From NCBI GenBank assembly GCA_043827405.1, contig JBDRPD010000053.1, forward strand, positions 96,221 through 160,220: a stretch of DNA of 64,000 nucleotides, given 5' to 3'. Below the pieces are notes generated by a model, which saw only the letters and a program-made list of their open reading frames with translations, had not been told where the DNA came from and did not search any database. Every line of letters starts with the position of its first letter. Positions within the stretch are counted from its first letter, which is position 1. The position numbers and the translations under genes are program-made. Of the stretch, positions 9,692-64,000 are shown piece after piece. This stretch comes from Elusimicrobiota bacterium. GTDB taxonomy: Bacteria; Elusimicrobiota; Elusimicrobia; UBA1565.

Positions 9692-9914
9692 AGGATTACC
9701 TTGCAGACAGTGTACTCCGGGACGGGTTTTTCACTATGAAGCGAAGGGGCAGGCAGATTCGGGTATTGGCTCCAGAACGGCCTATTCCTAAACTCTCACT
9801 AATGTGAAATGGAAGTTCACAGCGGGGAGCGGCTTCCGCATGATTTTTGCGCTCTGCGGACGCTATTGTTAGGGCGCTCAGTCTGGAACTTAACTTGCTC
9901 CTCATTCGTATATA

Positions 9915-10454
9915 TTGGGAGTGGCGTCCTCAAAAGTCCCTATAGTCACACCTTCGCTATATTTTATCCGGGGACAGCAGGTGATCCTGGACTCGGATCT
10001 GGCGGTGTTGTTCGGTGTCTCGACGAAACGGCTTAACGAACAAATCCGGCGCAACCGAGATCGCTTCCCTGTTGATTTCGCATTTCGCCTAAATTCGACC
10101 GAATCCGAATTTTTGAGGTCGCAAATTGCGACCTCAAAAAAAGGACGCGGAGGCCGTCGATATTTGCCTTTCGTGCTGACTGAACACGGAGTTGTAATGG
10201 CGGCGAACGTGTTGAACTCAGTTCGGGCAGTCGCCATGAGTGTTGAAGTCGTAAGGGTTTTTGTCCGGTTTCGCAAAGCACTTCATTCCCGAGGCTCTCT
10301 CGCGAAGAAGCTTGAACAGCTCGAACAGGCAGTAAAAACGCGTTTAGACAAGAACGACACGGAAATCGAAGAATTATTCCAGGCCGTTGAATCGCTCATA
10401 AACATTAATGTCGATAGTCCTGGTCCAAATAGAAAAATAGGATTTGTTCCATGA
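9915..10454 (+). CDS. ORF6N domain protein (KilA-N-like DNA-binding; phage antirepressor-related family)
   Basis: FIRGQQVILDSDLAVLFGVSTKRLNEQIRRNRDRFPVDFAFRL...LRSQIATSKKGRGGRRYLPFVLTEHGVVMAANVLNS matches the ORF6N family consensus. The C-terminal half is coiled-coil-like. The start is non-ATG (TTG at 9915 or GTG at 9921). Confidence 0.7.
   Translation: MGVASSKVPIVTPSLYFIRGQQVILDSDLAVLFGVSTKRLNEQIRRNRDRFPVDFAFRLNSTESEFLRSQIATSKKGRGGRRYLPFVLTEHGVVMAANVLNSVRAVAMSVEVVRVFVRFRKALHSRGSLAKKLEQLEQAVKTRLDKNDTEIEELFQAVESLININVDSPGPNRKIGFVP
10110..10140. repeat. 31-nt perfect palindrome TTTTTGAGGTCGCAAATTGCGACCTCAAAAA inside the ORF6N CDS
   Basis: Read directly from the sequence. It encodes the conserved LRSQIATSK motif. 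Both strands have the T-run upstream and the A-run downstream of the stem, so it is not a canonical intrinsic terminator in either orientation. Confidence 0.6.
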
Positions 10455-10538
10455 ATCGCTCTAACGGGGGCGCAAATACTGCGGGGTGGCAGGCCCAGAC
10501 ACCATATGAGCCCGGGATGAGGGATTGGCGGCAGCCGC

Positions 10539-11399
10539 TCAGAACGGCATAACCTTGCGCACCACCGTCTCGATCAGAAAGAACGCCGTATCGGGTCCCT
10601 TGCGGTCGGTGGTGCAGACGTCCGCCGCCTGCACGCTCTGAATCAAATGCGGGTAGTACTCGCGCAGCTCAAGCTCGGAGGCGCGGGTAAACAGATGCTG
10701 CTTCATCATGATGCCGCCGCGCCGGTCTCCCATCTGGTCCCACAGCTTGCGCAGGCCGTCGAGGTTGGGATCGTAGTAGTCGGTGCGGGGATAGAGGTAC
10801 ACCTTGCCCGCATTAGGGCAGTAGTACTCCCCCTTCTTGTCCTCGGAGACGAGCTTTACCTTGAGCAGACGCTTGAGCGACTTCTTCACCACCGGCTGCT
10901 GAAATCCCGTCGCCTTGGCGAGCTCCGCGACGCTCCAATGCCCGATGTCGTTGGCCAGCACCGTAAACACCCAGTAGAGCTCGGATGACGAGTTCACGCA
11001 GGAGGCCTGCTCTTTGGTGAAGGGGATGCTGCGCGCCTCGTAGTTGCGCACCATGGCCTTGCGCAGCGGCGCCACCGGGACCTCGGCCGAACGCACCGTG
11101 GAGGTCATGGCGCTGACGATGAGCTTGAACAAGCTCTCCGTTCCGACCAAGCTCTTAAGATAGGACTCGACGAACTCCTTGCGCCGCGAGGCGTCGTAGG
11201 GCAGGCGCAGGGCCTGCGAGATCTTTTCGACCAGCTTGGCCCCGGGCGCCGACACGCCCTTCTCCACGTTGAGGTACTGCCGGTAGGTGCAGCCGAAAAA
11301 AACCCGGCCGCCGGAATCCTGATAGAACGAGCGCGCCGAGTTATGCCCCGCGTCCGACCTCAGCGTCTGCAGCGTATTGGAAAAATATTCCCAGGACAT
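10539..11399 (-). CDS. Hypothetical protein with a predicted winged-helix DNA-binding region
   Basis: The GC-rich ORF has a likely ATG start at 11399 (MSWEYFSNTL); the track's 11438 is a TTG extension. The segment ELAKATGFQQPVVKKSLKRLLKVKLV resembles a wHTH. No confident family assignment. Confidence 0.45.
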   Translation of the reverse strand: MSWEYFSNTLQTLRSDAGHNSARSFYQDSGGRVFFGCTYRQYLNVEKGVSAPGAKLVEKISQALRLPYDASRRKEFVESYLKSLVGTESLFKLIVSAMTSTVRSAEVPVAPLRKAMVRNYEARSIPFTKEQASCVNSSSELYWVFTVLANDIGHWSVAELAKATGFQQPVVKKSLKRLLKVKLVSEDKKGEYYCPNAGKVYLYPRTDYYDPNLDGLRKLWDQMGDRRGGIMMKQHLFTRASELELREYYPHLIQSVQAADVCTTDRKGPDTAFFLIETVVRKVMPF

Positions 11400-11403
11400 A
11401 GGG

Positions 11404-11901
11404 TCACCTGTAGTTCTCGAACTGCAGCGCCAGGCCAAAGTCCTTGCCCTTGAGAAAGGAGATCGCCTCCTGCAGCTCGTCTTTCGATTTGGCCGTCACC
11501 CGCAGCTGGTCCTTCTGGATGGACGCCTGGACCTTCAGCTTGGTCTTCTTGAGCTCTTTGACGATCTCTTTAGCCTTATCGGAAGGAATTCCCTGCGTGA
11601 TCTTGACGAGCATCCGCGCCGTACCGCCGAGGGCGCTTTCCACCTTCTCATCGACGAAATTCTTCAGCGGTAGTTCGCGCTTGGCCAGCCGCATATTGAG
11701 CACATCCAGCAGCGCCTTCACCTTGAAATCGTCGGTGGACTGCAGCGTCAAAACCGCCGCCTTCTGATCATATTCAATCGTGGATTTGGTGCCGCGGAAG
11801 TCATAGCGATTGCCGATCTCCTTGAGCGCGACCTGAACGCAGTCGCCGATCGCGTGCATGTCGACCTTGGATACGACGTCGAACGAGAATTCCTTTGCCA
11901 T
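11404..11901 (-). CDS. yajQ: YajQ-family (UPF0234) nucleotide/c-di-GMP-binding protein
   Basis: 165 aa beginning MAKEFSFDVVSKVDMHAIGDCVQVALKEIGNRYDFRG, the typical YajQ N-terminus. An ATG start with a GGAG Shine-Dalgarno upstream. Confidence 0.8.
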   Translation of the reverse strand: MAKEFSFDVVSKVDMHAIGDCVQVALKEIGNRYDFRGTKSTIEYDQKAAVLTLQSTDDFKVKALLDVLNMRLAKRELPLKNFVDEKVESALGGTARMLVKITQGIPSDKAKEIVKELKKTKLKVQASIQKDQLRVTAKSKDELQEAISFLKGKDFGLALQFENYR

Positions 11902-26820: not shown

Positions 26821-27093
26821 GCTCTTCCCCCTCTAAATCCTATACGCTGGCGCAGGCCGGCGGATATGGGACCTGCTGATATTATAGCGCCTCACATACG
26901 CCATATGCCGCCGGGACTTCCTTCGCGCGCTAAAAAAATCTAAAATACAGCCGCTAGGAAAGTCCTGCGGCGCATGCAGGACCCCTGGGCCAGCTTTAGC
27001 CGGTTCCGACAGACCCCATCGGCGCTCTTGCCGAACTTCCGGGGTCCCGGTGGTAGGCGCCCTCACTACATCATCTGTACAGAGGAGGATATT

Positions 27094-48118: not shown

Positions 48119-49231
48119 TCATCCTTTAGAGAGCTTAGCCCGCGCGACGGGAATGCGCCAGGGGATTTCAGGACCGATCTCGGGAGCGCCCGCGAAATGG
48201 TCCGGCTCGCGACGCCGGTCCTCATTGTAGATTCGTTGGAGCTCGTCCCAGCCCATAGCCCCGCCGCCTTCCGGCGCCCGCCCGGCCGCCGCAGACGCGC
48301 GCGCCAGACAGGCCGGAATTTTTTCGGCCAAGCGCAGAATCTCCCGTTCGACCTCCTCGGCGTACGGATGCGCGGCGGCCCGGCGGACATCCGCGGCGAA
48401 ACGGCGGCCGTCCGCGGAGGGAAGCCAGTCCAGCACCTCCTTGAGATGGGCCTCGGCCGCGTCGAGGAGCCGGCGGCGCTCCGGCAGGTGCACGTCCCGC
48501 CACGACCGCAGCTCGTCGAGGACGCCCTTGAGCCGCTCCTGTTCGATCCCGTGCGCGAGCATCAGATGAGAGGCGAACCAGAACCAGTGGCGGTTCTTGC
48601 TCCGCACGTACTCCAGGCTCCCGCGGCGGCGCGCGAGCTCCGCGAGCCGCGCTTCGACCGATTTTCGCGGGGTTAGGGCCTCGCCGCGGCTCAGGCTCAG
48701 GCGCCGCTGTTCGGAATCCAGAAAAAGGATCACTTGGTGGTAGGCGTCCATGCCCGTCCCGAGGTCCGCGGCCGTTTCGCCCGCCGGCACGCCTCCGAGC
48801 TCGCAGGCGGCCGCCGCGCCCACGGCCAGCGAGTAGGCCTCATTCTCCTCCAGATGCAGGAACGTCTCGATCCCCCTGCTCCGGACTTCCCGCCCAAGCA
48901 GGACGTGGCCGTAGAGCTCATGGGCCAAAGTCTCGGCCACGATCGTTCCGGTCGACCGGATGAGCCCCTCGCTGAGAAGGATGCGCGCGGGGAGCGCCCC
49001 GCTGTCCGCCCGGCCCCAGCCTCCCTTATGGGCGACATCCGAGGAAAAGGAAACGAGATAGCCGAAGTCCCGGCGCGTCTCAAGACGCGCGGCGGTCGGG
49101 CTCTTCTTGAGCGCGGAGAGGGCCCTCTCGATAACGGCGCGCTCCTCCGGCCGCCCGCGGTCCGCGATCGTCGGCGGCTCCGCGGCGCGGCAGAGGAGGG
49201 CGAGAATCGAAAGCAGCGGGAGCAGGCTCAC
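48119..49231 (-). CDS. Secreted putative zinc metalloprotease (HExxH protein)
   Basis: A signal peptide is present, and AHELYGH fits an HExxH zincin motif. No further family assignment. The start is a GTG. Confidence 0.45.
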   Translation of the reverse strand: MSLLPLLSILALLCRAAEPPTIADRGRPEERAVIERALSALKKSPTAARLETRRDFGYLVSFSSDVAHKGGWGRADSGALPARILLSEGLIRSTGTIVAETLAHELYGHVLLGREVRSRGIETFLHLEENEAYSLAVGAAAACELGGVPAGETAADLGTGMDAYHQVILFLDSEQRRLSLSRGEALTPRKSVEARLAELARRRGSLEYVRSKNRHWFWFASHLMLAHGIEQERLKGVLDELRSWRDVHLPERRRLLDAAEAHLKEVLDWLPSADGRRFAADVRRAAAHPYAEEVEREILRLAEKIPACLARASAAAGRAPEGGGAMGWDELQRIYNEDRRREPDHFAGAPEIGPEIPWRIPVARAKLSKG

Positions 49232-51934: not shown

Positions 51935-54900
51935 TTAGCCGTCGCCGCGGCGGACGCGCATGGTGCGCAGCGGCGCGCCGGCGAGGTCCTTGAGGACCCG
52001 GCGGCTGATGCCGCGATGGCTGATCTTGGCGTCCTTGAGCTCGACCAGCGCCCCCTCGACGATGTCCTCGACGTTCCTGCCGTCGGCGCGCAGGGCAACC
52101 AAGGCCGCCAGGAGCGGCCGCAGGCTGGGGTTGTGGCCGCGCACTTCGACGTAAGCCCCCACGTAAATACTGCCGTCCTTGGTCCTCAGCGCCGCTCCCG
52201 CCGGGCTGTCCTTGGAGTAAGAACGGTTGGCGGCGCGGAAGGCCGCGTTGATCAGGTCGGCGCCGGCGCCGGAGGGCTTACGGATCATCGCCAAATTATT
52301 ATCGCGCGCCGTCAGCAAAGAGCCGTCGTCGCCGTAGGGCATGGGGTAGAGCTCGGCCAGAGTCGCCGGCTTCTCCCGGCTTTCCACGATAATCTTCATG
52401 CTGCCGCGAGAGGCCAGCTCATTGAGAAAAGCCCGGCAATGCCCGCAGGGATTGGCCGTGACCGCGAGAGCCTTGAGCCCGGTCTCGCCATGCTCCAAAG
52501 CGTTGATGACCACCGCCTGCTCGGCGTGGATATTCACCTCGATGCCGCCGGCGTAGGATTCGATATTGCCGCCCAGGTAGACGGCGCCGCTCTCGCCCAA
52601 GCCCACGGCGCCCACCGAACGCCCGGATACCGACGGCATCGCCTTCTTGGCCGCGATGGGCCGCAAAGCGCTGATGAGCTCTTCCGGCGACACATCCAAA
52701 GCTTCCGTCAGCTCCGCCGCCTTCGCGGGGCTGAGATAAGAGGGATTGCCTTCCTCCTCAAGCCGCGCTGCCAGATCGGCCGTCAGGTAGGCCTCCGAGA
52801 GGATCAGCTTGTCGCGCGCCACCGATTGGCCGATCATGCCGGTGAACAGCTCGGCGAGCCCGGCATTCCTGCCATGCTCCGCCCAGTCCTCGGCGAGAAG
52901 CTCGGCGAAAGACTCGGCGAGGTTCGCCACCTCGTCCTTGCTCGTCATCTCGATGAAGTAGTCGGCGTGGTGGCGCAGGGGCATGATATGCTTCTTCTCG
53001 TTCTCCAGCACCCGCTCCCAGCCCTTGAGGTTGTCCTCGATGGAGCGGCCGCGCTCATACTTGTCGCGCTTGAGCCGGCGGGCGAGACGGGCGGCCGTCG
53101 GCGCCGACAGGAAGACGTTAAGGTTGGTATGTCCCACTCCGGCCTTGAGCAAGGTCTTGTGGGCGGCGAAGATCGAATCGACGATGAGCACATCCTCCTT
53201 GCCCAGCTGCATATAGTCGCCGGTCTTGAATTCGGTGGTCATCTTTTCCATATTGCGGTAAGGCATTTCCACCCGCCGGCCTTCGAGAAGCGCCTTGATA
53301 TCGGCGGCGGCGCGGTCGAGATACAGCGCGTCCGGCCGGTCGAAATCGGGGCTGCCGTCGGCCAGCCGCGGCACGTCGTTGGGATTCTTGAAATAGGAGT
53401 CCACCGGGAAGACCTTAATGCGCTCGCCCATGGTCTTGGCCAAACGCTTGGCCAAGGTGGATTTGCCGGCCGCCGTGGGCGCCTGCAGATAGATCAGGCT
53501 GCGGCCGGGGAGCGCCTCGGCCATGGTCACGAAATGATCCAGCCGCTGCTCCAGATCGCCGTCGGTGAACTTCGCATAATCGATGTCTTTAAAGATCCCG
53601 CTCACCGTCCGGCGCGCTTCCGGCAGATAGCGCGCCTTGCGGTACTTGATCAGCGCGCTCGCGGCGCGGGCGGCCAGCGGCGCGCCCGCCTTTTTGAGAA
53701 ACGCGCCGACGCCTTCAACCGCGCGAATTCCGGGGCCGAGGACGGCATTGGTGGGGCCCGGGAAGTAGTACTGAGCGAGAACGGTCGAGGAGGCCGTGAT
53801 AGCGACCACCGCATTAAGCACCCAGGACATGTCGCCGAGCATGACGGCGGCGTAAAGATGGAGGAGGCTGCCCAGCGCGACCAGCCCGGGCCATAGCGGG
53901 GAGAGCCCCTCAGGCCGGCGGCCGTCTTCCTTGTATAGGTGGTAGTAGCTCTTGATCTGCGGCCAGTTGATCAGCCAGCAGAGATAGAGCGCCGCGGTCA
54001 AAGCCAAAGACAGCCAGGAAGACAGCGGCATGAAGGCCTGCAGCGCGATAAAGGGCAGAGGCAGCAGCGCCGCCGCCATGGCCAGCCCGGTGGCGATAAG
54101 CACCTTCCTGCTGCGCTGGGCATTGTTGATCTGGCCGATAAGAAGGATGCTCTCAAGCACCCCCGCCAAGTTGGCGCCTATCCACCACGGGTTGGCGGCC
54201 TGGCCGATGGAAACGACCGAGAACATGACGGCGGCGGCGAACCAGATCAGCGGAGTGGCGACGGGCACGTCCATCACGGCTTTGCGGCCCTCTTTAAAAT
54301 TTTTATAAATCTGCGGAACGCCGATAACGCTCAGGACGATGCTGCCCGCCCCGGCGACCAGGCCGACATGCGCCGCCAGCGCCGGAAGGGCGGCGACGAT
54401 TCCCGCGCCCGCCGCCAGCGCCGCGGCCCAGCGGACCGCCGGCTTCTGCCATAAGCGCGCCAGAGCCGAAGGCGCTTTGGCCTCGGCGGCGCTGAAATCC
54501 GCATTTTCTACCGCCGGCTTGTTCTGGTAATCATCAGCGGCTTGGCCTTGCGTCTTATGCAGGAGGACACGAGCGGCGCGGCCGCGGTGGAGCGCTCCGG
54601 CCTGGGCGGAAGTTTTGCTGCCGGCCGTGCCCTGCGTGGCGATCAGCTCGCTGCCGCGCAGCGCGGAGAAGAGCCTGTCCGCCGCCTCCTTCGAAACCTC
54701 GCCGCCGGCGGTCGCCTTAAATCCCTTGAGCTGGAGCGCCTTGCCGACGCGCCGGGTGATCGCCCGCAAGCCTTTGCCGCCGGCCTCATCTTTGGCCGCG
54801 ACCGCGGCGGTCTCGGCGCTATTCTCGCCGGCGACGGTCCCGGTACGGACCAGCGGGATGACCCGGCCTGGGTGCCGGACATGGCCGGTCTCGACGGCAA

Positions 54901-55201
54901 TCGTCCGCTGATGATCCGAGAGCGAAATGACCTTATTGCCGCCGCTAACCGCCGGCAGCGCGCCGACGTTCACATTGGGCAGTACCGCGGAGAGCTTGTA
55001 GCCGTCGGCGGCGAAAACGGACGGATTGCTGAAATTGAGCGCCTGCACGACCGGGACCGGCGCGGCCTGGACCGGCGAGGTCTTGACCTGCACCTGAGCC
55101 TGGACGACGACCCCGGCGATCGCCTCGCATGGCGCGCCGAAAAAGGTCCAGCCGAATTGCAGCAGGGCCAGGAGTCCGGCGAGCGACCGTTTCATCCTCA
55201 T
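51935..55201 (-). CDS. Multi-domain fusion: secreted/low-complexity N-terminus, PQ-loop (PnuC/SWEET-like) 7-TM domain, uridine-kinase/PRK-family P-loop nucleoside kinase, and tandem (two-domain) cytidine deaminase
   Basis: It is a single uninterrupted frame. Two PQ-loop motifs (VPQIYKNFKEG and WPQIKSYYHLYKEDGRRPEGLS) lie within about 7 TM helices. The kinase Walker-A and PRK pattern is LIYLQAPTAAGKSTLAKRL...VFPVDSYF. The cytidine deaminase zinc motifs are HAEQAVV...PCGHCRAF, followed by a second degenerate cytidine deaminase domain, as in E. coli Cdd. The start is an ATG at 55201 or 55195 (MRMKRSLAGLL..., a signal peptide), or a GTG at 55225. Confidence 0.65.
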   Translation of the reverse strand: MRMKRSLAGLLALLQFGWTFFGAPCEAIAGVVVQAQVQVKTSPVQAAPVPVVQALNFSNPSVFAADGYKLSAVLPNVNVGALPAVSGGNKVISLSDHQRTIAVETGHVRHPGRVIPLVRTGTVAGENSAETAAVAAKDEAGGKGLRAITRRVGKALQLKGFKATAGGEVSKEAADRLFSALRGSELIATQGTAGSKTSAQAGALHRGRAARVLLHKTQGQAADDYQNKPAVENADFSAAEAKAPSALARLWQKPAVRWAAALAAGAGIVAALPALAAHVGLVAGAGSIVLSVIGVPQIYKNFKEGRKAVMDVPVATPLIWFAAAVMFSVVSIGQAANPWWIGANLAGVLESILLIGQINNAQRSRKVLIATGLAMAAALLPLPFIALQAFMPLSSWLSLALTAALYLCWLINWPQIKSYYHLYKEDGRRPEGLSPLWPGLVALGSLLHLYAAVMLGDMSWVLNAVVAITASSTVLAQYYFPGPTNAVLGPGIRAVEGVGAFLKKAGAPLAARAASALIKYRKARYLPEARRTVSGIFKDIDYAKFTDGDLEQRLDHFVTMAEALPGRSLIYLQAPTAAGKSTLAKRLAKTMGERIKVFPVDSYFKNPNDVPRLADGSPDFDRPDALYLDRAAADIKALLEGRRVEMPYRNMEKMTTEFKTGDYMQLGKEDVLIVDSIFAAHKTLLKAGVGHTNLNVFLSAPTAARLARRLKRDKYERGRSIEDNLKGWERVLENEKKHIMPLRHHADYFIEMTSKDEVANLAESFAELLAEDWAEHGRNAGLAELFTGMIGQSVARDKLILSEAYLTADLAARLEEEGNPSYLSPAKAAELTEALDVSPEELISALRPIAAKKAMPSVSGRSVGAVGLGESGAVYLGGNIESYAGGIEVNIHAEQAVVINALEHGETGLKALAVTANPCGHCRAFLNELASRGSMKIIVESREKPATLAELYPMPYGDDGSLLTARDNNLAMIRKPSGAGADLINAAFRAANRSYSKDSPAGAALRTKDGSIYVGAYVEVRGHNPSLRPLLAALVALRADGRNVEDIVEGALVELKDAKISHRGISRRVLKDLAGAPLRTMRVRRGDG

Positions 55202-55295
55202 CCTTATAAATATAGTGCGCTTCACGGCCGGCGGCAGGTGTCATCTGGGGCAGATTTCGCCGGCCAAACGCACTACTTATTGCGGGCCCAAGGGC

Positions 55296-56780
55296 CTATT
55301 GGGCTCGATCGATGAGCCGGGGCAGCTCTTCTTCGAGGCGCGCGGAGGCTTCTTCGCGGTCGGCGCCGACGGCGATCACGTCGAACTTGCCGAAATCGAG
55401 CAGGCAGCCGACGTTGTAGAAGATATAGTGCCCCTGGCCGCTGCGCACGTCGTAAGCCGACGCGCCGAAGATCTTGAGAAAATCAGCGAAGCGGATGCCT
55501 TTGAGACGGGAGTCCACATAGTCGCGGGCCCGGTAGCAGGGCAGCCGGCCCCGGCCGAAGACGCGCTCGCACAAAGCCATCGGTATCGAGGTCCCGCCCC
55601 AGCGGCCGTTGCATTCGACGAACATCGGCTTGGCGCTCGGGATATCCTCGCCGCAGAGCAGGAAATCGAAGGAGCAGCGCCCGACATAGCCGAGCGCCTG
55701 CCATACCCGGGCGACCTCGCGGCTCATATCCGCCATTTTTCGCTGCAATTTCTCGGGCAGCGCCGAGGGCATGCTGCCCTGAAAGACCCCGGCCTTGCCG
55801 GTCAAAATCTGCTCATAGACCCCATCCACGCGGGGCGGTCCTTCCTCGGCCGGCGGGACCCACAGCTGAGTGGAGGGCGACTGCAGCACATCGCTGCGCC
55901 ATTGGGTGAGCAGAATCTCCACCCGCCCATCCCAGGCATGGTTCTTGGCGAACACCGCGATGCGCGAGGCGGTCTCATCGACCGTCCCGGCGCCCAGCTT
56001 CTTGGCGTTGAATACCTGATTGCCCATTCCGGAAGCATAGTTGGCGACCTTGAGCGCGACCGCAGGGAAGCGGCCGGCGAAGTCCTGCGCCGCGCGCGCC
56101 AGCGGCTGCAGATCATTGGAAGAAACCGTCCGGCATACCGATTCCGGACCGAGAACCACCGTGGCCGCCTGAGTGAGCAGGCCCTTGTGGTTGGCGGCAT
56201 AGGTCGCGGGCGGAAACGGAGCCAGCACCCGCACTTTCGTCTTGACGCGCTCCCTGAGCTCGAGCGCCAGCTCCCAGACCGCGCGCGAACCCATATAGGG
56301 ATGGACCAGCAGCCCTCCGTTCTCATCGGCAAGACGCACCAGTCCCCGCATGATCAGCGGATCTTTCAGGCAGGTTCCGGCGACGCACAGCGGATCGGCG
56401 CCGGGCACCGCGGCCCGCAGATAGGCCGGCTCGCCGATACCCAGCATATCCTTGTTGTACGACTCGTAGCCGTCGATCGGACGCTGCGTCGAGACGCAGA
56501 CATCGCCGTCGCCGGCCCGGGTTCGGGAGCGGAGCTGATACCATTCGACGCCCTGCACCCCGTCGAGAAATGGGATGTCGCTGAAGTCCTCCAGCACCAG
56601 CGCCGGCAGCTTCCCGTTGCCGCCCCGCGCCTGCAGGCCGCGCCAGGGAGCGGGGTCCTCGCCGGCACGGGGATGCTCGCGCAGCAGGGCCGCCGCGCGC
56701 TCAACGGCGCGCCGGCTTTCCTCGTCGTTTCTCTGGTTTTCTGCGCGCACAACCTGCAAAGAATAGCGCACTATTTGCAT
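55296..56780 (-). CDS. ATP-grasp-fold enzyme (PGM1-like / pre-ATP-grasp family), function unknown
   Basis: The C-terminal FVECNGRWGGTS resembles the ATP-grasp E-x-N-x-R motif. The preferred start is the ATG at 56780 (MQIVRYSL...). The plus-strand ORF 55215..56804 was judged an antisense artefact on composition. Confidence 0.4.
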   Translation of the reverse strand: MQIVRYSLQVVRAENQRNDEESRRAVERAAALLREHPRAGEDPAPWRGLQARGGNGKLPALVLEDFSDIPFLDGVQGVEWYQLRSRTRAGDGDVCVSTQRPIDGYESYNKDMLGIGEPAYLRAAVPGADPLCVAGTCLKDPLIMRGLVRLADENGGLLVHPYMGSRAVWELALELRERVKTKVRVLAPFPPATYAANHKGLLTQAATVVLGPESVCRTVSSNDLQPLARAAQDFAGRFPAVALKVANYASGMGNQVFNAKKLGAGTVDETASRIAVFAKNHAWDGRVEILLTQWRSDVLQSPSTQLWVPPAEEGPPRVDGVYEQILTGKAGVFQGSMPSALPEKLQRKMADMSREVARVWQALGYVGRCSFDFLLCGEDIPSAKPMFVECNGRWGGTSIPMALCERVFGRGRLPCYRARDYVDSRLKGIRFADFLKIFGASAYDVRSGQGHYIFYNVGCLLDFGKFDVIAVGADREEASARLEEELPRLIDRAQ

Positions 56781-56836
56781 ATGGCGCCAGGGTTTTTTGC
56801 TTGACTCATTTACTGAATGGCATAATACCTTCCGTC

Positions 56837-59467
56837 GTGAAGCGCCATCCATTAACCGGAAAATATTTCACCCCCGCCCTGGCGGTGCTGCTGCTCGCGG
56901 CCTGCGCCCGGACGGAAGGCCCCGGTCACGCTTATCAAAAAGCCGCCGCCCGGCAGCAGAAGTACTTCTACCTCGATCCGCTGACCCCGTTGTTCAGCCG
57001 GGAGCGCGGGCCGGACGGCTCCTGGTTTTTCACCGCGCGCCGCGCCATGAGCCCGCCGCACCCGCGTTTCTCCGCGCGCAAGCCCCCGGGCGTCAAAAGG
57101 GTCTTTGTTCTCGGCGGCTCGGTCGTCCAGCTCTTCGATGAAGAAGCGCTCAAGGCGGCGCTGGAAGCGGCCGGCCCCGGCGAGCGCTACGAGATCATCG
57201 ACTGCGGCCTGAGCGCCTACGACAGCCGCCGCGACGCGCTCATCCTGCGCGAAGTCCTCAACTACCAGCCGGACCTCATCGTGCTCATGAGCGGCGTCAA
57301 CGAGGGTGAGCGCATCGGTCCCGCCGTCCCGCACCGCGGCCGGTGGCTGCTGCGCATGACCCTGCGCGGGCTGCTGCTGCGGCATCCCGTCCTGGCCTAC
57401 CGGCTGGCGCGCTCCGCCGTCGAACCCACGCCGCCGCCCGCCCGCATCGCCGCCGACTTCGCAGCCAACGTACGCTCCATGATACGGCGCGCCAAGGCGC
57501 GCAAGGTTCCTATCGTCCTCACCGCCCTGCCCTGGAACCTGCGCGATATGCCGCCGCGCGGCGCCCTCCCGCTCAAGGACCGGCGCTTCTTCGACGCCTG
57601 GCTCGCCTTCGAAGAAGAAGACTACGCTGCGGCGGAGAAGCTGTTCCGCCAAGCCCTGCCGGCCTTCGCCAAGGACCCGGCGCTGAGCAAAGAGCTTATC
57701 TTCGCCAAATACTATCTGGCGCGCGCGCTCGACAAGCGCGGCCGGCATGCCGCGGCCCGGGACGCCTATCAGGCGGCGCTGGAGCTCGCCGTCCCGCCTA
57801 TGCCGGCGATCAATCGCGCGCTCAAGCGCCTGAGCGATGAGGAGGACGTCCCCCTCGCCGACCTCGCGGAGGCCTTTGCCCGCGTCAGCCCGCACGGCCT
57901 CACCGGCTCGGACCTGTTCGAAGACGACATGCACTGGGACCGCTTCCTCGATCCGCTCGTCGCCGAAGTCATCGTCCGGGCCCTGCGCCCGGAGCGCCCA
58001 TATCCGGATTTCATGCGCTACCGCGCGCTGGCCAAGAAAGCCGCCGCCCGCAACGAGAAAGCCTGGATCGTCTTCCGCTTCCGGGCCTGGGGAGCGGGCT
58101 TGGGCGGCGGCGGACTTTCGGAGCGGATCGTGGCGCTGATGGACGTGGTCCATGCCGCGCATCCCGAGCTCCTGGCGAATATTCTCGAGCTCAAGCAGTG
58201 GCTGCGCGGAAAGCTGGCGGGCAATATCTGGGACAGCGAGGCGGCCGCCAATCTGGACTCGTGGTGGCCGGTCATGCTCGGCCATATCGGTGAGTCCTAT
58301 CTCCGGCGGGGGCAAAGCCTGCGCGCGCTGGGATATTTCGCCGAGGCCCTGCGTCTCAATCCGAAGCTGACCGCTGTTCGCCTGCGGCGCGCCGCGGCGC
58401 TGGCCCGCTCAGGTCGCAAAAAAGAGGCCGCGCTGGCGCTGGACCTGCTCGCCCGCGAGCACGGCGATATGCCGGAGATCGGCTACTACCGCGCCGCCCT
58501 GCCGGGCATCAAGACGCGCAAGGGAAAGCCCGCCGCCAAGCCGTCCGCAAAGATGCCCGCCTTGGCGCTCGAAGGCAGCCGTTTTCTCGGCGCCCACCAG
58601 CAGCTGATGGCCGACGCCTCCGGCGCCGCCCGGCAGGGCGACGACGCGCGGGCCCTCGACCTGCTCCAGCGGCTGGAAAAGATGGAGCCGGCCGCGGAGC
58701 TGCGCCTGGAGATGGCGCGTCTCTACCTGAACCTGCGCCAAGGCGACGCGGCACGGCATGCGGTCGACCGCGCGATGTCCTCTCCCCTGGATTACGAGCG
58801 GACCATCCGCGCCGCCCGCCTTTACGGAGACATGAAGGAACATGTGCGCGCCGCGGCCGCCTGGAAGCGGGCCGCCGAGTCGGCTCCCGCCGACGCCGAA
58901 CCATGGTTCCAGCAGGCCCGTCATCTGGAAGAAGCGCGCGTCTTTATAGAGCTCCCGGCGGTGCTCGAACGAGCGGCGGTTCTGGCCAAGCAGCCGCAGC
59001 GCCGCCTGCGCGCCGCCGAAAAGCTCGCCGACCTGGGCAAGGAGGAGCTCGCTCTCAAGTTCGCCGATCAGGTGCGCGACGCGGCGCCCGAAGCCGATCT
59101 CCGCATGCGGGTCGGCTGGCTGTATCAGCGCCTGCGGAAATATCCGCGCTGCGTTTCCGTATTCTCCCGCCTCACCCGGAATCCCAAATTCGCCGCCGCG
59201 GCGCGGCGCGACAAGGGCGTCTGCGAGTACCTCAACGGCGCTCCCGAGCAAGCCGTCAAGGACCTCGAGGCCGCGCTCGCGCTCGAGCCCGAACTCCTGT
59301 CCGCCTACCTCAGCGCGGGCACTATTCTCGAATCGCTCAAGCGTCCGCAGGACGCTTTGGACCTCTATGAGCGGGGGCTTAAAATCCCGGCCAAGAAGGA
59401 CCATGAGGAACTGCGCCGCAAGCTCACCGAAAGCCGCGACCGCGTACGAGGCGCGTCAATTCGCTAA
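56837..59467 (+). CDS. Lipoprotein with an N-terminal SGNH/GDSL-type hydrolase domain and C-terminal TPR repeats
   Basis: The lipobox signal is (M)KRHPLTGKYFTPALAVLLLAAC, from a GTG at 56837. The SGNH blocks are VFVLGGS(V), LIVLMSGVNE and DDMHWD. A long TPR-like C-terminal region follows. Confidence 0.55.
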   Translation: MKRHPLTGKYFTPALAVLLLAACARTEGPGHAYQKAAARQQKYFYLDPLTPLFSRERGPDGSWFFTARRAMSPPHPRFSARKPPGVKRVFVLGGSVVQLFDEEALKAALEAAGPGERYEIIDCGLSAYDSRRDALILREVLNYQPDLIVLMSGVNEGERIGPAVPHRGRWLLRMTLRGLLLRHPVLAYRLARSAVEPTPPPARIAADFAANVRSMIRRAKARKVPIVLTALPWNLRDMPPRGALPLKDRRFFDAWLAFEEEDYAAAEKLFRQALPAFAKDPALSKELIFAKYYLARALDKRGRHAAARDAYQAALELAVPPMPAINRALKRLSDEEDVPLADLAEAFARVSPHGLTGSDLFEDDMHWDRFLDPLVAEVIVRALRPERPYPDFMRYRALAKKAAARNEKAWIVFRFRAWGAGLGGGGLSERIVALMDVVHAAHPELLANILELKQWLRGKLAGNIWDSEAAANLDSWWPVMLGHIGESYLRRGQSLRALGYFAEALRLNPKLTAVRLRRAAALARSGRKKEAALALDLLAREHGDMPEIGYYRAALPGIKTRKGKPAAKPSAKMPALALEGSRFLGAHQQLMADASGAARQGDDARALDLLQRLEKMEPAAELRLEMARLYLNLRQGDAARHAVDRAMSSPLDYERTIRAARLYGDMKEHVRAAAAWKRAAESAPADAEPWFQQARHLEEARVFIELPAVLERAAVLAKQPQRRLRAAEKLADLGKEELALKFADQVRDAAPEADLRMRVGWLYQRLRKYPRCVSVFSRLTRNPKFAAAARRDKGVCEYLNGAPEQAVKDLEAALALEPELLSAYLSAGTILESLKRPQDALDLYERGLKIPAKKDHEELRRKLTESRDRVRGASIR

Positions 59468-59476
59468 AATACCCGC

Positions 59477-60418
59477 ATGCGCATCCTGCTCACCGGCGGC
59501 ACCGGCTTCATCGGCCGGCACGTGCTCCCCAAGCTCGGCGGCCATACAGTCCTGCTGCTGACGCGCAGCAAGGCGCGGGCGCCGGGCGGCGTCCAGGTCC
59601 TCGAGGGCGACCTCGCCGACCTCGCCGGCCTGCAGGGGCCGATCAAGGAATTCGCCCCCGAATGCTGCGTCCACCTCGCCTGGGAGGGGCGGCCCGACTA
59701 CTCGCAGGAGCAATGCAATAAAAACCGCATGCTCTCGACCCAGCTCTTCAACCTGCTGGTCGACGAAACCAAGTGCGCCCGCATCGTCGCCGCCGGCACC
59801 CGCAGCGAGTACGCCGCGCTGCGCGGCGCGCTCAAGGAGGACGACCCCGTCGACAGCCCCGGCGACCTGGCGCTGGCCAAGAAGCAGCTCTTCAACTGCG
59901 GCATGGCGCTGGCCAACACCTGCGACATCCAGTTCTACTGGCTGCGCCTGTTCTCGGTCTACGGGCCCGGCCAGCGCCCCGACTGCCTGCTCCCCACCCT
60001 CGCCATGCGTTTTCAGGAGGAGCGCATCCGCCGGCTCACCCCGACCACGAAGCACCACTTTGACGCCGACGTGAAGTACGAGGTCCTGACCCCGGCCAAC
60101 GCCCACGACTTCATCCACGTCGACGACGCCGCCGCCGCGATCGCCGCGGCGGTGACGGCGAACGCCCCGAGCGGCGCCTACAACGTGGGGACCGGCTGCG
60201 CGGTCAAGGTCGCCAAGGTCTGCGGCCTGATGGAGAAGAAGCTGGCCGGCCGCCGCGACTATACCCGGACTCTCAAGAGCCGACCGCGCAAGAACTCGGA
60301 AGGCGCCTGGGCCGACCTGACCAAGACGCGGACGGCGCTGGGATGGGAACCCAAGTACGATATCGCCGTCGGCATCGACCGCTGCCTGCGCGCCGACCGC
60401 TTCGGCCAGACCATCTAG
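59477..60418 (+). CDS. NAD-dependent epimerase/dehydratase (extended SDR)
   Basis: MRILLTGGTGFIGRHV is the Rossmann motif; an active-site Y at the 153 region follows (SVYGPGQRP). Confidence 0.8.
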   Translation: MRILLTGGTGFIGRHVLPKLGGHTVLLLTRSKARAPGGVQVLEGDLADLAGLQGPIKEFAPECCVHLAWEGRPDYSQEQCNKNRMLSTQLFNLLVDETKCARIVAAGTRSEYAALRGALKEDDPVDSPGDLALAKKQLFNCGMALANTCDIQFYWLRLFSVYGPGQRPDCLLPTLAMRFQEERIRRLTPTTKHHFDADVKYEVLTPANAHDFIHVDDAAAAIAAAVTANAPSGAYNVGTGCAVKVAKVCGLMEKKLAGRRDYTRTLKSRPRKNSEGAWADLTKTRTALGWEPKYDIAVGIDRCLRADRFGQTI

Positions 60419-61146
60419 CCGCCGCTAGGCTGATTTGCGTCTTTTTTGATTCTACCGAGCGAGCGCGCGGCTGCCGAGCGAACGTCCTGATTCTCGTCAG
60501 ATAGGTGCTTCTTCAGCTCGGGGACAGCACTCGATGCCGCCGCCCCATAATATCCCAGGAGTCGGATGAGGCGCCGGCGCCCTCTTAAGCCGGATTTTTG
60601 CAACGCGGCAGTCACGACCGGCAGCGCTTCCTGCGCCGTCGGGCCGGGCCCCATACGGGTCAGGATAAACGAGCCGGATTCTTCGGGATCAGTCAGCATG
60701 TACGAAGCTCTCTCGCTCACCTCCGGCCAGTCGCTCTGCATGGCCTCCACGAGCCGCTCCACCGACCACGAGGGCTTGGGGGCCATGGAAATACCGTAGC
60801 CGAGCAGCAGGAGATATGAAGCGAATGCGGTTAAAATTGAATAGATAAAAAATCGTTTCGCCCGCGCCGATGCCGCCCAGCCCTTAGGATCTAAAAAAAC
60901 AACAGGCAGTAGGAACAAGCCGTAGAACATGGCCAGCTCCAGGCACTCGCCCGGCCTGATCGAAGCGTCGTAAAAATAGAGCGTGCCGAGATACCATCCG
61001 GCGGGGAGCGCCAGGACTGCCGTCTTCATCCACAGACGCCGCGCATGGAGTTTCGCCAGGTGCAAAGCCGCGAGCCCCGCTATCCCCGCGAACACGAGGA
61101 CCAGCGGCGGCAGCAGCATAAGCGGAAAATCATGAAACAGCGGCAT
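60415..61146 (-). CDS. Membrane protein with C-terminal HEAT (PBS-lyase-like) repeats
   Basis: Four to five N-terminal TM helices are followed by a C-terminal segment LIRLLGYYGAAASSAVPELKKHLSDENQDVRSAAARSLGRI, typical of HEAT_2/PBS-lyase repeats. It is the last gene of a five-gene overlapping operon. Confidence 0.5.
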   Translation of the reverse strand: MPLFHDFPLMLLPPLVLVFAGIAGLAALHLAKLHARRLWMKTAVLALPAGWYLGTLYFYDASIRPGECLELAMFYGLFLLPVVFLDPKGWAASARAKRFFIYSILTAFASYLLLLGYGISMAPKPSWSVERLVEAMQSDWPEVSERASYMLTDPEESGSFILTRMGPGPTAQEALPVVTAALQKSGLRGRRRLIRLLGYYGAAASSAVPELKKHLSDENQDVRSAAARSLGRIKKDANQPSGG

Positions 61147-61148
61147 GC

Positions 61149-61379
61149 CTATTCGACCATAGAGGTGCCGGGGTTAAACCAAATATCGGTGAAGACCCAC
61201 GTCGCCGCGCTGACGATCAGCAGACAGAGCGGGATTACCCAGCACAGCCTGCCGGCGCGGTTAAGGAGCCCCCTTCCGCCCTCGCCGGAAGCGAGATAGA
61301 AGTACCCCCCCGTCGAGCATGCGCTGAGAAAGAAGAACAAAAAGTATGGGATAAGAGTAAAGACCGTATAAATTCTCAT
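61149..61379 (-). CDS. Small membrane protein
   Basis: Two predicted TM helices. The likely start is the ATG at 61379 (MRIYTVFTLIPYFLFFFLSAC), overlapping the upstream stop. Confidence 0.4.
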   Translation of the reverse strand: MRIYTVFTLIPYFLFFFLSACSTGGYFYLASGEGGRGLLNRAGRLCWVIPLCLLIVSAATWVFTDIWFNPGTSMVE

Positions 61380-62053
61380 GCCCGCACCTTCCGGTCCATC
61401 CAAGAAATCGCCCGCTTAAGCGGCAGAAGCGCCAGCAGAGATGAGAGGACCAGCGCGCTAAACACAGGAAACGGCTCATCGGGCGGCAGACACGCGCACT
61501 CGAGCATCTTCCCGAACGCGCTGCCGAATTTAAACGCCGGGAACACCATAACCGCGAGAACGATCCCCGGCCAGGCGTGCCGAAGTCCCCGCGCTTTCCG
61601 GCTCAGATAATACCCCCCAATGCTCAGGACCGGCAAGATGAGTCCCGCCGAGCGATAAAATCGCGTCAAGGATTCCGGCTGCCCTTCAACAGATGTCATG
61701 GTGAGCAAAAGCGGCGAACCGATCTCGATAAACTGCGCGCCCCCCACATCCCTCACTATCATGATCGACAGGAACGAATACCACGCCAGCAAAGGGAGCA
61801 AGAACAGAGCGGACAGGCGCGACAGGACGAAATGGTGGTGCCGCGCCGCGGCATCATCATCGTGATAGGTACGCAAAGAACGGTATCCGAACACCGCCAG
61901 CCAAATCCACTGCATGAAGCATAGAGACAGCGCATAGTATTCCGCATAAGGGATGTGCAGGAAGGAAAAAACCATAAGCGCCAGCGTGACCAGGGCGAGG
62001 CCGACGGAATCCGCGGCGACATACAGCCGGCGTTCGATCAAGCCGCCGTTCAC
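61376..62053 (-). CDS. Polytopic membrane protein, function unknown
   Basis: About 6 TM helices, with a His-rich loop (HDDDAAARHHHF). It overlaps its neighbours by 4 nt. Confidence 0.45.
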   Translation of the reverse strand: MNGGLIERRLYVAADSVGLALVTLALMVFSFLHIPYAEYYALSLCFMQWIWLAVFGYRSLRTYHDDDAAARHHHFVLSRLSALFLLPLLAWYSFLSIMIVRDVGGAQFIEIGSPLLLTMTSVEGQPESLTRFYRSAGLILPVLSIGGYYLSRKARGLRHAWPGIVLAVMVFPAFKFGSAFGKMLECACLPPDEPFPVFSALVLSSLLALLPLKRAISWMDRKVRA

Positions 62054-62436
62054 ATCTTCACCAACGCGAAATTAACGGCGGCAAGCAGCATCAAAAGCAG
62101 CGCCCATGAGGCGGCTAGCCGTCCGCTCAGCTTGATTTTCTGCTCGGATGCTTCTGGCGAAGCGCGAAGCCGCGCCGCGAGATAGGTAAACGGCAGCACG
62201 GCCAAGGCGGAGACTGCCGCCTCAAAAATTCCCGTCTTGAGTCCCGCCGCCAGGGTTGAAAAGTGGACGATATCCGCCGCGCAATCAAGCAGCCGAGTCG
62301 AGCCGACGAGCGCCGCGAGGAAAACCGCGAAGTGCCAGCGGCTGCGAAGCCGTGGAGCCAGGCCCCAGGTCAAGACCGCGACGGACATGAACATGACTCC
62401 TACGGCGAGGATGCGCGACGGCGGGTACAAAGTCAT
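62050..62436 (-). CDS. Small polytopic membrane protein, function unknown
   Basis: 128 aa with about 4 TM helices. Confidence 0.45.
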   Translation of the reverse strand: MTLYPPSRILAVGVMFMSVAVLTWGLAPRLRSRWHFAVFLAALVGSTRLLDCAADIVHFSTLAAGLKTGIFEAAVSALAVLPFTYLAARLRASPEASEQKIKLSGRLAASWALLLMLLAAVNFALVKM

Positions 62437-62954
62437 GGTCCTGCCTTTTTCTCCAGTTCTTTTAAGGCGTGCTCGACCGCGGAGTGCATATTCGGCGCCT
62501 TATCTTGCGTGAGCTTTCTTAGGTGAGGCAAGGCCTTTGGATCGCCCAGTTCGGCCAGGCCGTATACGGCTGCGACTCTGACATAATCGCTCTCGTCATT
62601 TAGAGAATCAATAAGAGTATCGAGATGTTTGGAATCCCGGGTATAACCTAAAGTCCTGGCAGCACATGCGCGCAGATCGGGACGGGGAGTCTGCAGCAGG
62701 TCCAGCAGCCCCTTGACCGCCTTTTCGCGGCTCGTCCGTGATGAGGTCTCATCCAATACCCATTCACTGGAGCCTTCCCGGATGCAAAGCTCGGCAGCCG
62801 CCTTTGCTTCCGGCTGGAGTTTCTTAAGGAGCTCGCGATCTTCCGATGAAAGCAGCATAAATTCTGTGACAAAAAATATGCCGATGAACCCAAGCGCCGC
62901 TAAAGTCCCCAGCCCCAGCAGGGTTCTAAACAGCGCTTTAATAACGTTTTTCAC
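62433..62954 (-). CDS. Membrane-anchored HEAT (PBS-lyase-like) repeat protein
   Basis: An N-terminal TM anchor is followed by the HEAT-like repeats ...CAARTLGYTRDSKHLDTLIDSLNDESDYVRVAAVYGLAELGDPKALPHLRKL. It is the first gene of the operon. Confidence 0.5.
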   Translation of the reverse strand: MKNVIKALFRTLLGLGTLAALGFIGIFFVTEFMLLSSEDRELLKKLQPEAKAAAELCIREGSSEWVLDETSSRTSREKAVKGLLDLLQTPRPDLRACAARTLGYTRDSKHLDTLIDSLNDESDYVRVAAVYGLAELGDPKALPHLRKLTQDKAPNMHSAVEHALKELEKKAGP

Positions 62955-63101
62955 GCGATTATAACGATCACTGCTCCCTCAAATAGCTTACCTCTCGCGG
63001 CGCAATCGCGCCAGATGCGGCATCAACCATCAACCACCGCCCAGCCGCAAGTTTGATCCATATCCTTGCCTCTTCAAGATGGCATGTATTACCCTTCCTT
63101 A

Positions 63102-64000
63102 ATGCTGTCCGTATGGGGACGATCAGCCGTCATATCCCTACTGCTCTGCTCCTCAGCCGCCGCCGAGCCGTCGCGGCTGATCAGCCTGCAGGGCCGTCTC
63201 ACCGACGCCGGCGGCACCGTCATCACCCTGCCGCAGCCGGTCGTCTTCTCTCTCTACACATCATCGACCGGCGGGGCCGCTTTCTGGAACGAGACCCAAA
63301 ACGTCGCTCCGGACGCCGCCGGCCTCTATGAGGTCTACCTGGGAAGCGTCACCGCCATCCCGTCCTCGGTCGCTTTCAATCAGGATTACTGGCTGGGAAT
63401 AAACGTCGCCGGCGACGGCGAGATGACGCCGCGGCTTATGTTTACGGTCTCACCCTATGCGATCTACGCCTCAAGCGCCTCGTATGTCCCGGACACCGGC
63501 ATATCCGGCAGCACTTGGGACGGTCTCACCGGCGGCGGCATCACGGCGCTGCACTCGCATGCGGGACTCGTCAACGGGCCTCACGCCGATGACCACGCCG
63601 CGGGCGGGCTGGACTCGCTGGCTCCGCTGCAAGTCGATGTCGCGACCTTGACCGTGAGCCACAGCGTCTACCTGGCGACTTCGTCGGGACGGGTGGGCAT
63701 CGGGACCAGCGATCCGCAGACCTTGCTGGATGCGGCGGGCTCGATCCTGATCGGAACGGGAGTCAGTAAAAGTACTTTCACCGCCACCGGGGCGGTCGCC
63801 ATTGACGGCGACTTAACTGTCGCTGGTTCGGGCATCCTCTCCGATACGATGTTTTTCGGCCTGCCGAAGCTTCCGCATGTCATCAATCCAAACAGCCTGA
63901 TAGTTCCGACCACGACGGGACTGCTGCTCTATGAGCCGAACCTTAAAGCCCTCTGCTACAGCAAGACGACGGCGGCAGGAGGCTGGTACCGGGGCGACAA
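63102..64000 (+). CDS. Secreted tail-fibre/adhesin-like protein, 3'-truncated by the window end
   Basis: A frame open from the ATG at about 63102 to the window end (about 299 codons) was missed by the ORF track for lack of a stop. The signal peptide is MLSVWGRSAVISLLLCSSAAA. Segments such as SGRVGIGTSDPQTLLDAAGSILIGTG resemble phage tail-fibre or adhesin repeat motifs. Confidence 0.4.
   Translation, partial: MLSVWGRSAVISLLLCSSAAAEPSRLISLQGRLTDAGGTVITLPQPVVFSLYTSSTGGAAFWNETQNVAPDAAGLYEVYLGSVTAIPSSVAFNQDYWLGINVAGDGEMTPRLMFTVSPYAIYASSASYVPDTGISGSTWDGLTGGGITALHSHAGLVNGPHADDHAAGGLDSLAPLQVDVATLTVSHSVYLATSSGRVGIGTSDPQTLLDAAGSILIGTGVSKSTFTATGAVAIDGDLTVAGSGILSDTMFFGLPKLPHVINPNSLIVPTTTGLLLYEPNLKALCYSKTTAAGGWYRGD

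Follow-up and report, generated by a model that had tools for sequence, protein, structure and literature searches.

A block of five co-oriented minus-strand genes (the quintet, g1 to g5) occupies positions 60415 to 62954 of the window, by which we mean the whole 64,000-nucleotide stretch analyzed here (contig JBDRPD010000053.1). We hold with moderate confidence that the quintet is an authentic operon, though an orphan one restricted to its lineage, and that it lies on the chromosome of an uncultured member of the Elusimicrobiota. Its products are small and hydrophobic, three of its four junctions are stop/start overlaps, and the first and last of its proteins carry HEAT repeats.

Gene arrangement and coding potential

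The ORF list and the sequence place the five minus-strand ORFs exactly where the preliminary description had put them, and all five were called by both Prodigal and NCBI PGAP. The features of the locus are as follows.

62433..62954, minus strand: g1, 173 aa, GTG start (ABIJ96_09575, tag by locus-tag order)
62050..62436, minus strand: g2, 128 aa (ABIJ96_09570)
61376..62053, minus strand: g3, 225 aa, GTG start (ABIJ96_09565)
61149..61379, minus strand: g4, 76 aa, from ATG (ABIJ96_09560)
60415..61146, minus strand: g5, 243 aa (ABIJ96_09555, tag by locus-tag order)
62955..63101, no strand: 147-nt intergenic region separating g1 from the divergent first fibre-like gene
63102..64000, plus strand: gene for a secreted fibre-like protein of 306 aa (ABIJ96_09580), the first of a tandem pair, extending past the window end

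In the sequence, the g1/g2 and g3/g4 junctions are ATGA overlaps and the g2/g3 junction is a GTGA overlap. The 4-nt overlaps initially described for the whole block hold at these three junctions but not at the fourth, where g4 and g5 are separated by a 2-nt spacer (TAG-GC-ATG). Whether g1 and g2 overlap is decided by the start assigned to g2: the PGAP start (128 aa) produces the overlap, whereas the alternative Prodigal start at 62388 (112 aa) leaves a 45-nt gap and truncates the first transmembrane helix (TM) of g2. PGAP begins g5 at Met10, which yields 234 aa, and both callers give g4 76 aa. At the far end of the block, the stop of g5 and the stop of a convergent epimerase gene overlap in a common CTAG (60415-60418). 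The divergent intergenic region is the presumed place of both promoters. A sigma-70 consensus scan of 62955..63101 found no promoter-like site, so the promoter location is taken from the gene arrangement only; a scan for promoters and terminators returned nothing exceeding shuffle expectation.

The five ORFs are probably real genes. On the minus strand, 99.9% of the block lies within ORFs of 70 aa or more, compared to a mean of 52% and a maximum of 90% in 500 dinucleotide shuffles. The three codon positions differ in base composition in each of the five called frames (P = 4e-4 to 6e-9), and the frequency of T at codon position 2 is 0.29 to 0.39 in the quintet, similar to the 0.37 of two window membrane proteins with Pfam annotation. 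The preliminary description had raised the prospect of antisense artefacts, with codon usage and TM predictions as the check; the tiling, the periodicity, and the charge pattern around the TMs all favor real genes.

It is very unlikely, in our judgment, that function is restricted to the two HEAT genes and that some or all of g2, g3, and g4 are spurious reading frames, or decaying ones, within GC-rich sequence. Long ORFs do come easily here (in shuffled sequence of the same composition, the longest ORF averages 141 aa), these three genes are without a homologue or family, and the gene callers differ on the start of g2. However, gap-free tiling was reached in 0 of the 500 shuffles, and three-base periodicity is significant in each of the three genes, with T at position 2 at 0.39. 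Moreover, their hydrophobic segments have regular TM length with charges arranged positive-inside, the stop/start overlaps are exact, and the opposite strand of the block holds no ORF longer than 115 aa.

Predicted topology and HEAT repeats

Hydropathy and AF2 helices together predict 1, 4, 6, 2, and 4 TMs for g1 to g5, respectively. These counts reproduce those first proposed for g1 to g4, while g5 appears to have four TMs followed by HEAT repeats rather than five. It is important to note that topology was assigned by applying the positive-inside count by hand, such that one TM more or fewer in g5 would flip its HEAT domain, and that the AF2 models are unreliable (pLDDT 48 for g3 and 50 for g5).

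The g1 protein has a single N-terminal signal-anchor TM (residues 11-33), with three K/R and no D/E ahead of it, and three 31-residue HEAT repeats of the PBS/alphaRep type (residues 77-169, nt 62448-62726) in exact register (77-107, 108-138, and 139-169). In g2, with four predicted TMs, K/R residues in alternate loops number 8 versus 2. The six predicted TMs of g3 are oriented N-in/C-in, with 14 K/R in even loops versus 4 in odd loops; one of the loops predicted to lie outside contains an ECAC motif. The His-rich loop noted earlier in the 6-TM protein is present in g3 as a His/Asp-rich loop, predicted to be cytoplasmic (H64-DDDAAAR-HHH74, nt 61832-61864); no relative of g3 was found in the PDB. 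In g4, two segments are hydrophobic, and the first closes with a lipobox-like L-S-A-C at residues 18-21 (nt 61317-61328). By eye, MRIYTVFTLIPYFLFFFLSAC in g4 matches the lipobox [LVI][ASTVI][GAS]C, but the three R of the next loop would favor a 2-TM hairpin instead, and g4 may be either such a hairpin or a small lipoprotein whose C-terminal segment forms a TM. Finally, the four TMs of g5 (K/R in alternate loops, 6 versus 1) are followed by HEAT-type repeats, approximately three in number, that span residues 128-237 (nt 60436-60765), with repeat units at 128-158, 174-204, and 205-237. At low confidence, AF2 places helices at 7-33, 37-59, 65-85, and 94-116 and then seven short helices, which are paired over residues 129-237.

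HEAT/PBS-lyase repeats had been reported at both ends of the operon, and both g1 and g5 pass the Pfam cut-off for HEAT_2 (PF13646, 27.7 bits), with 64.1 bits (E = 1.5e-17) and 37.8 bits (E = 2.4e-9), respectively. For HEAT_PBS (PF03130, cut-off 20.9 bits), g1 scores 31.5 bits (E = 1.6e-7), and g5, at 18.3 bits, falls under the cut-off. Solved structures that match g1 and g5 include alphaRep-type chains; synthetic alphaRep scaffolds derive from the PBS-lyase HEAT-like/HEAT_2 family. With proteins of this family, the C termini of g1 and g5 share the 31-residue repeat, and they match alphaRep, MTH187, and YibA chains. The archetypes of the family, MTH187 (PDB 1te4) and Escherichia coli YibA (1oyz), are soluble and mostly have longer arrays. 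In contrast, g1 and g5 have no more than about three repeats each, and these are joined to one and four TMs, respectively, on what is predicted to be the periplasmic side. The titles and abstract openings covered by a literature search on transmembrane or membrane-anchored PBS-type HEAT proteins contained no relevant match. The HEAT parts of g1 and g5 show the sole resemblance within the quintet, and it is weak (E = 0.002 in a five-sequence database). Internal paralogy of the quintet was considered and dropped: the TM parts are unrelated, and the window contains no paralogues elsewhere.

The preliminary description had further suggested that the HEAT repeats scaffold a partner such as a chromophore or protein, and the chromophore found no support here. 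CpcE/CpcF/CpeY and NblB have only the HEAT repeat type in common with g1 and g5, the feature behind the chromophore idea, and the corresponding NCBIfam equivalogs score 18 to 34 bits against cut-offs of 220 to 600, over 60 to 80 aligned residues (CpcE, CpcF, and NblB, 23 to 34 bits against 220 to 330). No other match to phycobiliprotein or bilin-pathway families was seen among the scanned window genes, and Elusimicrobiota are not known to be phototrophic. What is shared is thus the repeat type alone, and the idea of a chromophore lyase was dropped on the basis of the NCBIfam scores.

The statement that none of the five genes has an assignable function stands, as Pfam, NCBIfam, PADLOC, and PHROGs yielded generic HEAT only. 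No family in Pfam, NCBIfam, or PHROGs was matched at E ≤ 1 apart from generic HEAT. In PADLOC-DB 2.0, g1 matches HEAT-ARM_XIII (E = 5e-9), but in both g1 and g5 this match covers a generic HEAT stretch of ∼80 of the model's 1972 positions. In the same database, g2 to g4 had no match below E = 0.019, and no defence system was indicated beyond the generic repeat.

Homologues, base composition, and origin

Among 5.8 billion protein clusters, g1, g3, and g5 matched only themselves, as did g3 in an exhaustive phmmer search against 1.84 billion representatives. The search for homologues of g2 and g4 covered the 90%-identity cluster level and the viral and plasmid sets only; neither cluster contained a sequence from another genome, with that of g2 formed by the PGAP and Prodigal calls of one gene and that of g4 a singleton. 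No match was obtained for the block by blastn against plasmids and phages, for g2 and g5 by tblastn against plasmids, or for g1, g2, g3, and g5 against viral contigs. An exact-sequence look-up placed the contig in one sequencing run only (Logan SRR26275510).

The flanking genes gave a similar picture. A TPR-GDSL gene has only two relatives, with 41 to 49% identity, among 185,579 species genomes (GTDB), and the loci found through it in two other Elusimicrobiota MAGs (L003 and L004) have neither the quintet nor the epimerase nor the fibre genes. The epimerase was found at 41 loci in JGI metagenomes (best identity, 29%), none of which carries any of the five genes. The block had been put forward as an undescribed conserved module, with conservation of the set in related genomes as the test. 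With the quintet in just one uncultured Elusimicrobiota genome, and absent from the two related loci and the 41 metagenome loci, the set is, as far as these searches reach, an orphan operon specific to its lineage rather than a conserved module.

The quintet resembles ORFan clusters in MAGs: homologues are missing, codon composition is odd, the products are small and hydrophobic, and a single sample is the source. It differs from such clusters in that two of its five genes carry a recognizable ancient repeat domain, and the cluster is therefore not wholly de novo. In MAGs from poorly sampled phyla, orphan operons that encode small membrane proteins are common, and tight overlap together with a repeat domain is not sufficient by itself as a sign of a conserved module, for which conservation is best examined at the outset.

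Because the lineage is poorly sampled, the set may be conserved inside it, and the orphan status may be partly a product of this sampling: small membrane proteins diverging at the rate of their neighbors (29%; 41 to 49%) would escape phmmer. We nevertheless regard it as unlikely that a deep, nearly unsampled Elusimicrobiota lineage conserves the quintet as an envelope module whose small membrane subunits have diverged past sequence detection, hence their orphan look. The low identity of the epimerase's best metagenomic relative, the two distant relatives of the TPR-GDSL gene, the single sequencing run, and the orderly operon bracketed by HEAT proteins speak for such a module. Against this, the 225-aa g3 was blank by phmmer, g1 and g5 returned no orthologue even though their HEAT domains should be recognized most readily, synteny is lacking at the two related loci, and the third-position GC content (GC3) of the block is 3 to 8 standard deviations below that of the other genes, which one would not expect of a module long resident in the genome.

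The GC3 of the quintet ranges from 0.56 to 0.74 (z = −3 to −8), compared to 0.84 ± 0.034 for the 41 other window genes (minimum, 0.77), with g1 the most extreme (0.56; z = −8.1). The Pfam-annotated membrane proteins of the window have a GC3 of 0.77 to 0.84, and low GC and GC3 are limited to the five ORFs and the intergenic region. Because of this difference, a foreign or young origin of the quintet is suggested; the block may have been acquired from an unsampled lower-GC donor or be young and weakly selected. The surrounding genes, including HypF, hut genes, POR, and acetate kinase, indicate a chromosomal setting. A mobile-element, island, or phage origin was examined, with the sequence read to 64.6 kb on the right flank, and found no support; only GC3 is deviant. 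Nor is a foreign origin corroborated by other features. The tetranucleotide distance of the block is unremarkable (z = 1.3), there is no tRNA in the window, an Rfam scan was negative, no convincing flanking repeats were found, no toxin, integrase, or transposase is among the genes annotated in the window, and plasmid, phage, and viral matches were all negative.

Putative role and divergent neighbors

Returning to the orphan operon that we favor, transcription would start in the divergent intergenic region, translation would be coupled, and the products would be located in the inner membrane. The preliminary description took the tight coupling to imply stoichiometric assembly of a membrane complex; such assembly, read from the gene overlaps, is putative. 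By the positive-inside rule, both HEAT domains may lie on the periplasmic side, where they could act as small protein-binding scaffolds anchored via the polytopic subunits. Our best guess, a tentative one, is an assembly in the inner membrane whose two HEAT scaffolds, of three repeats each, face the periplasm.

The only nearby candidate partners would be the divergently encoded secreted fibre-like proteins. A larger proposal, in which an undescribed inner-membrane complex of two periplasmic HEAT solenoids with polytopic and small-lipoprotein anchors holds or delivers an envelope partner (e.g., fibre-like adhesins) and is conserved in an unsampled Elusimicrobiota clade, strikes us as improbable. 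As it stands, the quintet matters little, with no mechanism indicated. If the periplasmic HEAT placement is true and relatives are found, there would be bacterial HEAT scaffolds outside the cytoplasm, in a membrane complex, a modest and testable addition to envelope biology.

Alternatively, the block could be horizontally acquired accessory cargo and not a housekeeping complex, with a conflict-related role, for example in immunity or exclusion against a membrane-targeting toxin or phage or as a helper of the fibre-like adhesins. The confinement of low GC3 and GC to the five ORFs and the intergenic region is consistent with this, as are the singleton, small, polytopic membrane proteins, the adjoining pair of secreted fibre-like proteins, which weakly resemble the N-domain of the Bdellovibrio mosaic adhesive trimer (MAT), and the g1 match to the PADLOC HEAT-ARM model. 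We consider it quite unlikely, however, given that the PADLOC match spans generic HEAT repeats only, that the toxin, integrase, transposase, tRNA, and boundary repeats sought were not found, that phage, plasmid, and viral collections contain no relatives, and that the tetranucleotide signature is not foreign.

The divergent tail-fibre-like gene of the preliminary description is present, as the first of two tandem genes (the second lies downstream, outside the window), but the fibre identity is sub-threshold only. The fibre-like neighbors have no Pfam family and no match by tblastn against phages, and a PHROG tail fibre was matched at a sub-threshold E of 0.005. Adjacency is their sole link to the quintet, and they are treated here as context of the operon. 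The MAT N-domain aligns weakly (E ∼ 1e-4) with the N-terminal ∼80 residues of both proteins, which score 22.4 and 22.2 bits against NF053851 Bdello_MAT_N, under its cut-off of 60. By eye, the N terminus of the first fibre-like protein is hydrophobic and signal-peptide-like.

Gene calls and coding evidence

The quintet consists of five minus-strand genes for small membrane proteins, numbered in transcription order and read here in window coordinates.

62954..62433, minus strand: g1, 173 aa, GTG start
62436..62050, minus strand: g2, 128 aa
62053..61376, minus strand: g3, 225 aa, GTG start
61379..61149, minus strand: g4, 76 aa from ATG
61146..60415, minus strand: g5, 243 aa

All five genes were called by both Prodigal (on the identical contig in Logan run SRR26275510) and NCBI PGAP (on the 194,892-bp contig of the "Elusimicrobiota bacterium" MAG; locus tags ABIJ96_09560, _09565, _09570, _09580, within the range ABIJ96_09555-09580; proteins MFH2203348-MFH2203352), independent callers that differed only in the starts of g2 (112 aa in Prodigal, 128 aa in PGAP) and g5 (243 aa and 234 aa, respectively). 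Read from the sequence, the g1/g2 and g3/g4 junctions overlap at ATGA and the g2/g3 junction overlaps at GTGA. The preliminary description had assigned 4-nt overlaps throughout, which is correct for three of the four junctions but not for g4/g5, where TAG-GC-ATG leaves a 2-nt spacer. At the other end of g5, its stop codon and that of the convergent epimerase gene overlap in a shared palindromic CTAG (window 60415-60418), so that no terminator would fit between the two genes.

At this GC content, long ORFs by themselves arise easily; the longest ORF averaged 141 aa in dinucleotide shuffles of the block. Gap-free tiling does not: minus-strand ORFs of at least 70 aa tiled 99.9% of the block, whereas 500 dinucleotide shuffles averaged 52% and never exceeded 90%; coverage of the opposite strand by the same measure was 54%. 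Base composition was codon-position specific in every called frame (chi-square P from 4e-4 to 6e-9), and the frequency of T at codon position 2 was 0.29 to 0.39 (0.37 for HlyIII and PepSY_TM, the Pfam-annotated membrane proteins of the window). Lysine and arginine were concentrated in alternate loops of g3 (14 versus 4), g2 (8 versus 2), and g5 (6 versus 1), which is the positive-inside pattern of genuine membrane proteins. Based on the gap-free tiling, the periodicity, the transmembrane (TM) and positive-inside pattern, and the HEAT_2 matches described below, we consider all five ORFs to be genuine genes.

Membrane topology and HEAT repeats

Hydropathy indicated 1, 4, 6, 2, and 4 TM-length segments in g1 to g5, and AF2 secondary structure was in line with these counts for g3 and g5. 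The counts proposed previously thus stand for g1 to g4, but g5 has four TM segments plus HEAT repeats and not five. The HEAT repeats reported in both end proteins were borne out: g1 (64.1 bits) and g5 (37.8 bits) exceeded the Pfam HEAT_2 threshold of 27.7, which places them in the HEAT_2/PBS-HEAT repeat family, and both also matched PDB chains of alphaRep, MTH187, and YibA. There are three HEAT units in g1, in an exact 31-residue register, and about three in g5. Because three K/R and zero acidic residues precede its single TM segment, g1 is predicted to be N-in; g5 is predicted to be N-out and C-out because its K/R-rich loops follow TM1 and TM3. With these orientations, both HEAT mini-solenoids are predicted to face the periplasm. 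In g3, a His/Asp-rich loop (H64-H74) is predicted to be cytoplasmic and an ECAC motif lies in a predicted outer loop, while the N terminus of g4, MRIYTVFTLIPYFLFFFLSAC, is lipobox-like by eye. Structure prediction was uninformative on how the quintet works: single-sequence AF2 models had pLDDT values of 48 and 50, and fold searches returned no significant or coherent match.

Conservation and origin

The quintet had been put forward as a candidate conserved module. However, g1, g3, and g5 each matched only themselves among 5.8 billion protein clusters, as did g3 in an exhaustive phmmer search of 1.84 billion representatives, and no sequence from another genome fell in the clusters of g2 or g4 at 90% identity. 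Through the flanking TPR-GDSL gene, loci in two Elusimicrobiota MAGs were recovered (identities of 49% and 41%), both lacking the quintet, the epimerase, and the fibre-like genes; the flanking epimerase led to 41 metagenome loci (best identity, 29%), none with a relative of any of g1 to g5. Plasmid, phage, and viral-contig searches with the quintet found nothing. As far as sequence comparison reaches, the quintet is nowhere detectably conserved, so the conserved-module reading fails by the refutation proposed along with it, namely that the ORFs would not recur as a set in related genomes. An unsampled sister lineage may hold orthologues of these fast-evolving small membrane proteins, because sampling is thin and even the ordinary flanking genes have only distant nearest relatives.

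In Pfam, NCBIfam, PADLOC, and PHROG, g2, g3, and g4 matched no family at E<=0.01, and g1 and g5 matched generic HEAT models only, in agreement with the earlier statement that none of the five has an assignable function. Judging from these libraries, g2 to g4 fall in no described family. A chromophore had been suggested as a partner of the HEAT proteins, but g1 and g5 scored 18 to 34 bits against phycobilin lyase cut-offs of 220 to 600, which rules them out as such lyases. A known defence system was likewise ruled out, PADLOC giving generic HEAT only. Taken as a whole, the quintet most resembles the lineage-specific orphan gene clusters of MAGs.

The window is an unremarkable stretch of chromosome (HypF, subtilase, hut genes, CHASE2 cyclase, POR, acetate kinase, M42 peptidase, HlyIII, and Memo-AMMECR1). 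Compared with its 41 other genes (GC3, 0.84 ± 0.034; minimum, 0.77), GC3 was 0.56 in g1 (z = -8.1) and 0.71 to 0.74 in g2 to g5 (z about -3 to -4), and the GC dip covers the five genes and the intergenic region. The low GC3 suggests a foreign or young origin but no more firmly than that, since nothing else points to acquisition from outside: the tetranucleotide distance of the block was unremarkable (z = 1.3), and we found no repeats flanking the quintet, no tRNA in the window, and no mobility gene among the window genes annotated.

A second low-GC islet (window 9400-11440; GC, 0.57 to 0.59) holds two adjoining genes, which may represent the remains of a mobile element or prophage, or else a regulatory pair.

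9915..10454, plus strand: ORF6N-domain protein (PF10543, E=5e-29)
10539..11438, minus strand: 299-aa protein with weak HTH matches

Putative scaffold and neighbouring genes

The quintet would form one operon, transcribed from the 147-nt divergent intergenic region, with probable translational coupling at the three overlapping junctions and products inserting in the inner membrane. HEAT units of the PBS type with three repeats serve as surfaces for protein binding, a property on which alphaRep binders are built. On the most economical reading, the quintet would be a small membrane-anchored scaffold, in which g3, with its His/Asp-rich loop and ECAC motif, would be the largest polytopic subunit. 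We think it improbable that the quintet represents a true envelope complex with periplasmic HEAT domains, shared across a clade not yet sampled. We regard the quintet as real yet ordinary in kind; the preliminary description of it is largely correct apart from the g4/g5 junction and the TM count of g5.

The only candidate partners of the putative scaffold, tied to it by adjacency alone, would be the divergent fibre-like proteins. The single tail-fibre-like neighbour described previously is present as two tandem genes for secreted proteins of 306 aa and at least 188 aa (window 63102-64000 and, in the sequence continuing past the window edge, L001 3-1483), but its fibre identity was sub-threshold (NF053851; 22 bits against a cut-off of 60, E about 1e-4). 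Both share an N-terminal motif weakly like the Bdellovibrio mosaic adhesive trimer N-domain, and neither had a Pfam family or a phage match.

Three sizeable ORFs of native GC3 (0.83 to 0.85) at window 43063-44850, 48119-49231, and 26974-28422 (595, 370, and 482 aa) had no above-threshold Pfam family; unannotated proteins are therefore common in this genome. In Elusimicrobia GWA2_69_24 (MGTY01000009.1; L004 2577-14575), three TPR-GDSL paralogues lie within 12 kb, with 35 to 46% identity to the 888-aa protein of the window; here the family represented beside the quintet has expanded locally. At window 51935-56852, a 1096-aa fusion combines PRK/uridine-kinase and two cytidine/dCMP-deaminase domains with an unannotated N-terminal region of about 570 aa; together with the adjoining PreATP-grasp protein, it constitutes an unusual nucleotide-salvage or modification pair.
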